A stretch of 64,000 bases of DNA from a virus, in IMG/VR virus record IMGVR_UViG_3300041409_000348, positions 1 to 64,000 of that record; one strand, written 5' to 3'. The notes beneath the pieces were generated by a model. It had not been told where the DNA came from. It saw only the letters and a list, made by a program, of their open reading frames with translations, and did not search any database. This document shows positions 18,890-21,466 of this stretch, in pieces. The translations under genes and the position numbers were made by a program. Positions within the stretch are counted from its first letter, which is position 1. The number at the start of each line of letters is the position of its first letter.

Positions 18890-19930
18890 CTACCCCACCC
18901 GGCGGCCGACACCACCGAGAATCACCGAATCCTTCACCGACGCCACCGGCCCGCCCGGTCGGGGCCACGCCTGCGCGTCCACCAGGCCCGGCGGCACCAT
19001 CTCCAGGCCGTCGAACATACCGCCGATCTGCGCCCGGGTATGGTTCCACACCCTCGGGCCGCGTTCGCTGCACACCGCCGCGAACTTATCCCCCGCTTCC
19101 CCGTCCTGATGCCACACCGCGACGATGATGCAGGAGCCGGGGACCAGCGCCGAGGCGAACCCGGCCACCACGTCACGGGCGCAGGCGGCGTCCAGGTGGT
19201 GCAGAACGTTGCCGAGGACCACGCACACCGGCTCGGCCATGCGGAACAGGCCCCGGACCTCGCCCCTGGCCAGCAGGGCGTGCGGGTCGCGGACGTCGGC
19301 GCCGGTGACGTCCACGTCCGGGCCGTCGGCGAGGATCGCGCGGGCGTGGGCCAGGACCATCGGGTCATAGTCGGCGTACACGGTCCGGGCGTCCGGGTTC
19401 ACGGCCCTGGCCGCCTCATGGACCGGCAGCCACTCCGGGCCCCCGCCCCACCGCCGCGGCACAGTCGGCAGGCCCGTCCCCGCATCAATGAACTGCCCGA
19501 TCCCCTCCCCCGCCGCCCACCGGACAGCCCGGGTCACGAAACTCTTGCTGCCCGCGGCGAGAGCCCCGGCGCGGGGCTGGCGGTCCAGGATCATGGCGGC
19601 GTGTGCCCGGTCGGCGGCGAAGTTGTCTTTCCCGCCGAGGAGGCAGTCGTGGACGCGGGCGATGTTCGGGACGGTCGCGTCGAACGGCATCAGGGTCTGC
19701 TCGAGTTTCGCGCGGAGCCCGCCGAGGGTCGCCGACTGGGCCCAGTCGGGCCACATGCGGTCGTGGCGGGCGGTGGCGAAGTAGCAGGTTTCCCCGTGGA
19801 CGGTGACGGGGGCGATGTTGTAGGCGGGGAAGTCGCCTTGCAGGGCCAGCAGCCGGGAGTGGGCGCGTACGGGGTCGGGGATGCGCTGCCCGATCTGGCC
19901 GGGTGTATGCGGAAGCTGATCGACGCCCAC
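18890..19930 (-). CDS. actinomycete SAM-dependent methyltransferase (DUF574-like)
   Basis: PNIARVHDCLLGGKDNFAADR, GIGQFIDAGTGLPT, YADYDPMVLAHARA. Confidence 0.85.
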   Translation of the reverse strand: MGVDQLPHTPGQIGQRIPDPVRAHSRLLALQGDFPAYNIAPVTVHGETCYFATARHDRMWPDWAQSATLGGLRAKLEQTLMPFDATVPNIARVHDCLLGGKDNFAADRAHAAMILDRQPRAGALAAGSKSFVTRAVRWAAGEGIGQFIDAGTGLPTVPRRWGGGPEWLPVHEAARAVNPDARTVYADYDPMVLAHARAILADGPDVDVTGADVRDPHALLARGEVRGLFRMAEPVCVVLGNVLHHLDAACARDVVAGFASALVPGSCIIVAVWHQDGEAGDKFAAVCSERGPRVWNHTRAQIGGMFDGLEMVPPGLVDAQAWPRPGGPVASVKDSVILGGVGRRVG

Positions 19931-20304
19931 CAGGGTTCCCCCCCTGTACCGAGTTACGCAATTGCGTACCATGCCAGCCTAGTCATGCCAGCCACGTCCT
20001 GTCACGGACTCCGGCCTCTCTGTGACACGGAAACCCCTGGTGTATCGGTCAACCAAGCCCAGGTGAGAGGCGTACGGCACGAGAGAGGCCCCGGCCGGCT
20101 GCCAGCCCGGCGGGGCCTCGTCGTTGATGGAACGGTCAATCCCAGTCGATGCTCATCAGGGTTCCCCTTCCCTGTCCGGCGGGATTCGCGGAGGTCATCC
20201 CCACTCGATGCGCATACCCGCCACCTCCGCCCGCTAAAGCCGTATCTGACCGGACTCTTTTAGCAGACCATGCTACGTGTGCCACGTCTACCAACCAGGG
20301 CATG

Positions 20305-20357
20305 AAAAAACCCGGCCAGCGAGGGGATCCGGGTGGGCGGACCCCTCGCTGGCCGGG
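20305..20357 (-). terminator. long hairpin terminator
   Basis: CCGGCCAGCGAGGGG...CCCCTCGCTGGCCGG with T6 on the minus strand. Confidence 0.7.
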
Positions 20358-20665
20358 CGTTACGGCCTGCCCGCGCGGACTGCAGGTCTCCGGGGGAAGG
20401 AGGTGCCTGGGCAATCAGGGATGGTCGGGCCGCTATCTTTCCGCTACATAGCGTAAGCGAATGGTGCGGCCCCGTGTCAAGCGGGACGGCGGGATCTCCT
20501 GTGCCAGTTCCTCGCTGATCTCAGGGTCCATCAGCCGCGCCTCCTTCCGCTTCGCAGCCCGTGCGCCCATCGACCCGCCACCCGAGCAGTCCGGGCCGGG
20601 GTCGCGGCCAGCGCGCGTGCCGGGGCAGCAGCCGGGCGCCTGATAGCGGCCGAGCATCCGCGGCA

Positions 20666-21466
20666 TTACGCCTCCCAGATCATGGTCTTGACGTCGAGCA
20701 CCGCCCAGTTAGCACCGTCACCCTCATCGCAGTCCAGCCCAGTCACCTCGACCGGGCCATAGCCGAAGTCACATACACGCTGGTATGAGCGGTGCAGGTG
20801 CCCGTGCATCAGGTGGGACGGCTGTACGGCGCCCACCACCCGCTGCAGGCGCTCCTGATGCGCGTCGCTGCGTGCGAGATCCCGCACATCCCAGAACGCA
20901 GGCGGGGGCGGGAACGTGTGCTTCACGCCGGATGGGCAGTCGTGGGTGACCATCACATCAGCCGGCCCGTCCGCGATGACAGCCCGCTCCTGCTCGGCGG
21001 TGATCTCTTCCTCGGGCCACCAGTTCCTGCCCTCGGTGCGGATGGCCTTGTCCAGGCTCACCCCGCCACCGAGCGCCAGCCAGGTCCGGCCGTGCCACAT
21101 CCACCGGGTTCCGCGCGGCTGCCAGTAGATGCCCGGCGAGATCTCGGTTACCCCGATGCCGCCGCCGAACATGCGCTTGTTCTGCTCGACCGCCTCATGC
21201 ATCTGCGGGAAGTCCTCGTGGTTGCCGTCCACGAACCACAGCACCATGTCGGCGGCTTCCAGCGCTTCGCTCACCTGCCGCAGGTACTTCCGCCCCGCGT
21301 CGCCCGGCCAGACGCCGAAGTCGCCAAGGTGCAGGATGATCCGCGAGGCCAGCGGGTTCTTGTCGTCCAGCCGTTCGGCGGCCATCCCGATAACGTGCAG
21401 TGCCCAGTCGGTGTTGCCGTGCCAGTCCCCGGCGACGACGATGCGTCGTGTGTCGCGGTAGCCCAT
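20666..21466 (-). CDS. calcineurin-like metallophosphoesterase
   Basis: GDWHG, HLGDFG, DGNHED, THD, HGHLH. Confidence 0.9.
   Translation of the reverse strand: MGYRDTRRIVVAGDWHGNTDWALHVIGMAAERLDDKNPLASRIILHLGDFGVWPGDAGRKYLRQVSEALEAADMVLWFVDGNHEDFPQMHEAVEQNKRMFGGGIGVTEISPGIYWQPRGTRWMWHGRTWLALGGGVSLDKAIRTEGRNWWPEEEITAEQERAVIADGPADVMVTHDCPSGVKHTFPPPPAFWDVRDLARSDAHQERLQRVVGAVQPSHLMHGHLHRSYQRVCDFGYGPVEVTGLDCDEGDGANWAVLDVKTMIWEA

Follow-up and report, generated by a model that had tools for sequence, protein, structure and literature searches.

The stretch of DNA analyzed here (the window; 64,000 nucleotides) comprises positions 1 to 64,000 of a virus record of 103,563 bp, IMGVR_UViG_3300041409_000348, which has a G+C content of 68.8% and a terminal repeat of 69 bp. 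The record is an uncultured actinophage of 103.5 kb, and genes neighboring the locus described below match phage families, including a metallophosphoesterase (phrog_1649), an HNH endonuclease, a replication-initiator HTH protein and an excisionase-like HTH protein. On the minus strand, the metallophosphoesterase gene is followed by a leader region and then by a gene for a SAM methyltransferase of the Methyltransf_19 (DUF574) family (18890 to 19930, minus strand). A small open reading frame (ORF) of up to 77 amino acids (20433 to 20666, minus strand) lies between the metallophosphoesterase gene and the terminator T1; its GC3 profile is coding-like, and it gave no family match. Apart from two six-codon ORFs, positions 20300 to 19950 are non-coding according to a GC3 frame plot. 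Two longer ORFs over the leader, a 92-amino-acid frame on the minus strand and a 100-amino-acid frame on the plus strand, were rejected because they lack GC3 periodicity.

Both six-codon ORFs are read from the minus strand and are preceded by a Shine-Dalgarno (SD) sequence, as a sequence-only reading of the window had described. Mini-gene 1 (20195 to 20215; ATG CGC ATC GAG TGG GGA TGA) encodes MRIEWG, a peptide of the form M-R-x-[E/D]-W-G (type 1), and its SD sequence GGAGGTG (20222 to 20228, minus strand) ends 6 to 7 nt before the ATG. Mini-gene 2 (20136 to 20156; ATG AGC ATC GAC TGG GAT TGA) encodes MSIDWD, of the form M-[S/T]-I-D-W-D (type 2), 7 nt behind the SD-like sequence AAGGGGA (20163 to 20169, minus strand). 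The common pattern M-x-I-[DE]-W-x-stop, which was defined post hoc, occurs twice in the whole 103.5-kb genome, where about 0.0008 occurrences are expected, and ATG mini-ORFs of 3 to 10 codons with an SD sequence are rare in this phage in general (0.2 per kb per strand). The proposed paralogy of the two frames was borne out by their alignment as a 23-nt direct repeat (19/23 positions identical; copies 59 nt apart), whose score was reached by 1 of 2,000 shuffles. The first base of this repeat is that of the ATG and the last lies 2 nt beyond the stop codon. Both ORFs share the features by which we delimit the family proposed below, namely, an SD sequence 5 to 8 nt before the ATG and six to seven codons with an acidic residue, Trp, a small residue and the stop. 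We do not assign MTRLAWYAIA-stop (19954 to 19986, minus strand), a third short ORF with one Trp codon and only a weak SD sequence, to the family; this ORF overlaps two elements described below, a candidate promoter of the methyltransferase gene and a palindrome.

The mini-genes are flanked by two hairpins, both noted earlier from the sequence and both confirmed by folding. T1 (20305 to 20357, minus strand) is an intrinsic terminator with a 16-bp perfect stem (hairpin, 20357 to 20311) followed by a run of six T residues (20310 to 20305); it folds at −47.8 kcal/mol (z −7.5) and ends the upstream transcription unit, which comprises the metallophosphoesterase gene and the small ORF. T2 (20085 to 20119, minus strand) is a GC-rich hairpin of 17 bp located 16 nt past the stop codon of mini-gene 2 (−31.1 kcal/mol; z −3.5), and it is the probable terminator or attenuator that closes a mini-gene transcript of roughly 150 to 190 nt. 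Since T2 lacks a U-tract, its terminator role is putative. Elsewhere in the leader, folding does not exceed that of shuffled sequence (z −0.83 and −0.24), and neither an attenuator structure nor an antiterminator alternative was revealed. The sequence TAGCAT (20270 to 20275, minus strand), which had been proposed as a −10 element for the mini-gene transcript, is present, but a consensus promoter scan found no match there or at the candidate methyltransferase promoter, and its role is that of a candidate. The 16-mer CGTGGCACAC[G/C]TAGCA, found at 20271 to 20286 (minus strand), recurs in the phage at 102878 to 102863 (minus strand) and may be a phage promoter element common to both sites. A candidate methyltransferase promoter (GTGACA, 18 nt, TAGGCT; 19976 to 20005, minus strand) was read by eye. 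A perfect 12-nt palindrome, ACGCAATTGCGT (19956 to 19967, minus strand), which has no second copy in the 103.5-kb phage and is located about 25 nt upstream of the methyltransferase start codon, is a possible operator, and a tandem pair of GGCTGGCATG (19993 to 19970) precedes it.

The GTG start codon of the methyltransferase gene at 19930 agrees with that of a 90%-identical homologue starting MNVDQL. The surrounding translation-initiation region (19920 to 19951, minus strand) duplicates that of mini-gene 2 (20178 to 20146), the similarity extending through the SD sequence, spacer, start and first four codons over 34 columns, with a score that none of 2,000 shuffles reached. In agreement with the earlier remark that a start context is repeated at the methyltransferase gene, the window contains exactly two occurrences of GGGGAACCCTG-RTG (20167 to 20154 and 19941 to 19928), against 0.07 expected. 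A large duplication of the methyltransferase 5′ end was considered and rejected, the significance being limited to this 34-nt patch. The simplest account suggested by the shared region is that, through a local duplication, the enzyme gene acquired the start of what had been a third mini-gene unit; the shared region could instead be a pointer to coupled regulation.

Orthologues of the methyltransferase at 75 to 90% identity were found (P0003 cluster, 90%; P0004 cluster, 75%); the two clusters have 14 members, on contigs of up to 17.6 kb. Protein-guided scans detected no close relatives in viral or metagenome contigs, and in genome contigs they detected relatives at 36 to 48% identity only. The N-terminal extension of the enzyme, about 80 amino acids (residues 15 to 95 of P0001), is conserved in a subset of homologues (P0035, P0045, P0046, P0053 and L032). 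Methyltransf_19 genes are present in 23 other large IMG/VR contigs, and the closest solved structures, 2qe6 and 3giw, are both of uncharacterized proteins.

Among the phages in IMG/VR, the closest relative (L012) encodes a metallophosphoesterase 84% identical to that of our phage but shares nothing downstream of it; the entire cassette is absent, indicating that the mini-genes sit in a mosaic region. BLASTN of the leader against plasmid and phage collections found no relatives, and Rfam gave no credible match on the leader or on three of the bacterial loci described below.

A scan of metagenomes with the query ATGNNNATCGANTGGGNNTGACC returned 119 stretches, which is about the chance expectation. 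Most of these matches are chance ones, including approximately 20 copies of a gut-metagenome segment encoding MLIDWA, which we rejected because it has neither an SD site nor a second mini-ORF. Four metagenome contigs (L074, L080, L092 and L097) share the context ATCCCTGG(A/C)TCG-ATG-xxx-ATCGAGTGGG..TGACC, which probably belongs to a conserved coding stretch in some unrelated gene. In two soil contigs (L065 and L104), MRIEWG stands behind an SD sequence and is followed, at a distance of 52 to 68 nt, by a second SD sequence and MSIDWD, in the same order as in the phage. The second peptide was absent from the query pattern and was found nevertheless, which lends independent support to the family. 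The same two peptides in the same order are encoded by the genomes G1048, G1077 and G1084, while G1092 has MRIDWG instead, and contig L100 carries MRIEWG followed by MSIDGD, showing that the Trp residue is not absolutely fixed. The FolC gene beside the L065 locus is closest to metagenome-assembled genomes labeled Streptosporangiaceae by NCBI. Judged by the names of close homologues, the chromosomes that encode the two peptides would belong to an uncultured lineage of Streptosporangiales.

Alignment of the phage with the bacterial loci (alignments A3 and A4) showed that the two SD-ORF blocks are all that they share. The flanks do not align, the spacer between the mini-genes measures 38 nt in the phage versus 51 to 68 nt in bacteria, and in all bacterial homologues mini-gene 1 retains an SD site at the same distance from the start codon, though with a different sequence. 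Within the ORFs, the window and L065 differ at six nucleotides, all of them synonymous third positions (CGC/CGG, GAG/GAA and GGA/GGC in mini-gene 1; ATC/ATA, GAC/GAT and GAT/GAC in mini-gene 2), and the 20 first and second codon positions are all identical. By a simple combinatorial estimate, the chance that six random changes on 30 sites all fall on third positions is 210/593,775, or about 3.5 × 10−4. The SD-ORF blocks and the peptides are kept in bacteria, and the recurrence of the same two peptides with synonymous differences only upholds the earlier suggestion of a micro-peptide.

To follow the family further, we used patterns and a profile. The degenerate pair pattern matched 1 of 401 genomes of the order (G1048) and 4 of 21 genomes in the genus of G1048. 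Profile R1, a sequence-only covariance model built from eight loci and giving rough E-values, matched 16 of 151 genomes of the bacterial family at an E-value of ≤0.01, and mini-ORFs with the consensus M-R-x-[E/D]-W-G-stop could be read in 14 of these 16 (at least 14 of 151). The window itself scores 75.7 bits with R1, a match by construction, as it was one of the training sequences. Elsewhere, the single-ORF motif was found in none of 401 Streptomycetaceae genomes and in no viral contigs, the pair pattern in none of 301 and the tandem pattern in none of 251 sampled Actinomycetes, and R1 in no genome beyond G1048 in an order-level sample of 151; these are samples and do not imply absence elsewhere. 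When viral sequences were scanned twice for tandem or pair forms, the single match lay inside a coding region and is attributed to chance. A literature search for the peptide strings and related concepts, with coverage short of all journals, returned no description of such a mini-gene family.

Many of the bacterial copies are arranged in tandem. The arrays include MRVEWG in five copies (units of 65 to 70 nt), MRTEWA in four copies (80 to 85 nt), MRGEWG in eight copies both in G1102 (74 nt) and in G1126 (66 nt, with single units of 71 and 90 nt), MRSDAWG in eight copies (63 nt) and MRRNDWG in about ten copies (72 to 78 nt), and shorter sets are also present. Every unit has a strong SD sequence, such as GGAAGGAG, AAGGAG or GAAAGGA, and its spacer is rich in C and A and poor in G. 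As most unit lengths (65, 70, 74, 76, 80 and 85 nt) are not multiples of three, no long ORF explains the arrays. In the largest array (L209; G1109:C19, 7031 to 7793), two types of spacer, and likewise the stop codons TGA and TAA, alternate along the MRRNDWG units, one copy has decayed by a frameshift, and MRDDLGL is encoded in the 5′ flank. These comparisons point to a previously undescribed family that appears to be carried by soil actinobacteria, often as tandem arrays of up to ten copies.

We then surveyed codon usage in 31 distinct copies. Arg codons vary among CGC, CGG and CGT, Glu codons between GAA and GAG and Gly codons between GGC and GGA, the stop codons TGA, TAA and TAG interchange, and the C-terminal residue is G, D, A or L, while Trp is kept in 30 of the 31 copies. 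Such synonymous codon and stop variation around a retained Trp is a signature of selection on the translated product, and the synonymous variation among the relatives agrees with the micro-peptide suggestion. Codons ending in A or T, which are normally rare in high-GC actinobacteria, are common in the family mini-ORFs (GAA, 11, versus GAG, 7; GAT, 9, versus GAC, 3; ATA in three copies).

The genomic context of the bacterial mini-genes is conserved. In 12 of 13 distinct loci, the exception being G1109, the mini-genes are divergent from a gene for a GGDEF protein of 435 to 470 amino acids, whose N-terminal part of roughly 255 residues has no Pfam match and contains four to six hydrophobic, transmembrane-like segments. 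In 8 of the 13 loci, the mini-genes converge with a gene for an EntS-like MFS_1/MFS_3 exporter. A trypsin-like peptidase is encoded downstream in the same direction in two loci, including the G1109 array (L209), and valS is a far neighbor in two. G1056 carries two modules about 69 kb apart, MRSDAWG in eight copies at L210 (G1056:C15, 7404 to 7874) and MRTDWG with MSIDWD at L179 (G1056:C15:116167-119349). Each is beside its own GGDEF paralogue, and the pairing of different peptides with separate paralogues is a hint of cognate peptide-cyclase pairs. Across the immediate neighbors scanned with Pfam in the window and the 13 bacterial loci, the matches were GGDEF, MFS, trypsin-like, valS, folC, aldo-keto reductase and Methyltransf_19. 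The phage differs from the bacterial loci in having no GGDEF domain, and no exporter was seen among its scanned neighbors; it is bacterial synteny that provides the link to c-di-GMP.

The methyltransferase gene is not part of this context. None of the 13 bacterial loci has a Methyltransf_19 gene in the searched stretches (15-kb contexts plus L065, L100 and L104). Conversely, family ORFs were absent upstream of all 40 other Methyltransf_19 genes inspected, of which 9 are bacterial, 23 are viral and 8 belong to the candidate host genus. The eight paralogues of the candidate host genus, some of which have the N-terminal extension, have no family mini-ORF nearby, and the 32 others (9 bacterial and 23 from IMG/VR contigs) have no Trp-containing mini-ORF of any kind upstream, with only six ATG mini-ORFs with an SD sequence in about 23 kb. 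The specific tie to a DUF574-type gene that the sequence-only reading had proposed was thus not recovered from either direction. The methyltransferase beside the mini-genes is peculiar to this phage, and the conserved link is to the cyclase.

We consider it about an even bet (a probability of roughly 0.5) that the two frames are real, separately translated six-codon genes of a conserved actinobacterial family, in which it is the peptide that matters and not regulation of the methyltransferase. The phage-only methyltransferase link, the conserved cyclase link and the array layout make it most likely, in our reading, that the phage captured its pair from the host and that both genes serve to produce peptides. 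Each type is present once in the phage, which matches the pair found in one host-like genus. We would argue that arrays of identical SD-ORF units with unstructured C/A-rich spacers suit the mass production of one short peptide. In the phage, a short transcript would start after T1 and mostly end at T2, supplying the host's own peptides during infection, and these would act on their host pathway, probably c-di-GMP signaling. The ORFs, SD sites, hairpins, arrays, synteny and conservation of the peptides are observed, whereas translation, the transcript ends, export, sensing by the cyclase and a benefit to the phage are inferred.

A more tentative extension, somewhat speculative in our judgment, is that the bacterial loci constitute an undescribed signaling system in which arrays produce a hexapeptide that is exported by the MFS protein and sensed by the diguanylate cyclase, with the phage forging the signal. 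The product might be trimmed after Met-Arg by the linked trypsin-like peptidase. A point against such a role is that the hexapeptides have no signal sequence and could reach the outside of the cell only through an exporter. This would amount to cell-cell or autocrine peptide signaling coupled to c-di-GMP, and a phage with the two peptides of the host genus would steer c-di-GMP-dependent host physiology during infection. The putative roles as exported signal, cyclase ligand and Met-Arg trimming substrate are suggested by synteny. A peptide signal encoded by a phage has a precedent in AimP of the arbitrium system, a secreted pre-pro-peptide that is processed to a hexapeptide and paired with the phage receptor AimR. 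The mini-genes resemble AimP in being phage encoded and in having a six-residue end product that could carry a signal. Unlike AimP, however, their six codons are the whole gene and their homologues are host chromosomal genes, and no TPR-type, AimR-like receptor was found among the scanned phage neighbors (the metallophosphoesterase, Methyltransf_19 and proteins without family matches).

If the family is as we propose, its members, at 21 nt including the stop codon, would be among the smallest genes with comparative evidence of selection at the peptide level, and gene callers miss such mini-genes. We found no description of a layout in which polycistronic arrays of identical mini-cistrons are linked with a membrane-bound cyclase for c-di-GMP. 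The presence of the exact host peptide pair in a phage would represent a new kind of host mimicry in actinophages and a testable link between ribosomal micro-peptides and second-messenger signaling.

A possible, if doubtful, alternative is that the mini-genes act in cis, in the manner of microcin C, with ribosomes on the mini-ORFs controlling termination at T2, stabilizing the RNA and setting read-through into the methyltransferase gene; the peptides would then be secondary, and such an action could coexist with peptide production. In the microcin C operon, the short mccA transcript is abundant and ribosome bound, and ribosome binding induces termination between mccA and mccB and stabilizes the message (PMC4231749). 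The order of promoter region, mini-ORFs, strong hairpin and enzyme gene in the phage parallels that of mccA, terminator and mccB, the stop codon of mini-gene 2 lies only 16 nt before T2, and the initiation region of mini-gene 2 is shared by the methyltransferase. The likeness to mccA (MRTGNAN, in mccABCDE) is thus one of architecture, a tiny ORF followed by a hairpin (20119 to 20085; z −3.5) and then an enzyme gene, to which the bacterial mini-genes add an MFS exporter in the locus and a peptide starting with Met-Arg. However, the product is not a heptapeptide ending in Asn, since mini-gene peptides end in G, D, A or L, and no MccB (ThiF/E1-like) adenylyltransferase was found among the immediate neighbors scanned. 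MccA-like sequences are not conserved (PMC6495379), whereas the mini-gene peptide sequence is. Against an action in cis also stand the convergent orientation that the next gene has in most of the bacterial loci, the existence of arrays with up to ten identical units, which are hard to explain as attenuators, the leader folding, which equals that of shuffles (z −0.83 and −0.24) with no antiterminator found, and the location of the candidate methyltransferase promoter downstream of T2.

The same evidence bears on Trp sensing, which the sequence-only reading had offered as a possible function. Like the amino-acid-sensing leaders trpL and TnaC and the drug-sensing leaders ermCL and cat86, the mini-genes are short upstream ORFs with an SD sequence and a Trp codon before a hairpin and a gene. 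A Trp-sensing attenuator leader is defined by tandem or multiple Trp codons, mutually exclusive terminator and antiterminator pairings and a regulated gene that is conserved downstream. Each mini-ORF, in contrast, has a single Trp codon, the leader showed no alternative pairing, conservation does not extend to the downstream gene, and the units form tandem arrays, most bacterial copies having no co-directional gene downstream. In homologues the downstream gene differs or is convergent, and where the next gene is on the opposite strand, the usual case in bacteria, attenuation would have no target downstream. The mini-genes are probably not Trp attenuators or methyltransferase-specific leaders.

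That the hexapeptides are instead substrates of the adjacent methyltransferase, forming a minimal RiPP-like pair in which the N-terminal extension binds the peptide, appears improbable. Ribosomal precursors of five to seven residues are known, the enzyme has an extra 80-amino-acid domain, and its family has no known substrate. In biarylitide clusters, the precursor gene bytA (18 bp, encoding, e.g., MRYYH; mccA has 21 bp) is partnered with the P450 gene bytO, some clusters have up to six precursor copies and some add a SAM methyltransferase (PMC12002111, PMC13417212). Biarylitides and the mini-gene products are alike as actinobacterial ribosomal peptides of five or six residues, often starting with Met-Arg, each with its own SD sequence, missed by gene callers and existing in multicopy precursor variants. 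The mini-gene motif, however, is [E/D]-W-G rather than aromatic-x-aromatic, every array unit has its own SD sequence, and the partner is a GGDEF cyclase. Instead of the biarylitide pentapeptide M-x-[Y/W]-x-[H/Y/W], the mini-genes encode six to seven residues with I, V, T, G, D or N at position 3 and an [E/D]-W-G end, and no cytochrome P450 was detected in Pfam scans of the neighbors in the window and the 13 bacterial loci. A modification substrate is further hard to reconcile with the occurrence of the peptides in 13 bacterial loci whose searched stretches contain no Methyltransf_19 gene and with the lack of such ORFs near the eight host-genus paralogues, some bearing the extension, and the 32 other Methyltransf_19 genes. 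By these comparisons, the mini-genes fall outside the definitions of biarylitides, microcin C, arbitrium and Trp leaders.

We regard it as very unlikely that the mini-genes act on the translation apparatus, whether by evicting a tunnel-binding antibiotic or by sequestering tRNA or peptidyl-tRNA hydrolase. Both modes of action have precedents: in E-peptide minigenes, a short nascent peptide evicts a tunnel-binding antibiotic, and the lambda bar minigenes sequester tRNA or peptidyl-tRNA hydrolase. The strong SD sequences, unstructured spacers and high copy number would maximize ribosome throughput, and an efflux-type MFS gene is a frequent neighbor, but the conserved partner is a diguanylate cyclase and not a resistance gene, and the motif of acidic residue, Trp and Gly is unlike the known E-peptides, which are hydrophobic, while bar minigenes have two codons. 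The least likely account, a non-coding repeat (an RNA motif or a DNA site bound by a protein) or a duplication in decay whose frames are open by chance, could draw on the purely non-synonymous differences between the phage's two copies, the near constancy of the motif TGGGGCTGA at the nucleotide level in bacteria and the third partial copy at the methyltransferase start, but is contradicted by similarity running from exactly the ATG to 2 nt past the stop, SD sequences at the right distance despite different sequence, purely synonymous phage-bacteria differences and interchanging stop codons.

Some of the bacterial loci also share a feature outside the mini-genes. In L065, L100, L104 and L174 to L177, a conserved non-coding block, CCCATG(T/C)CCGG(G)ATCAT...AGAT, follows the second mini-gene. 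This block, almost a palindrome centered on TCCGGA, separates MSIDWD from the end of the convergent MFS gene and may be an operator or a shared terminator region.
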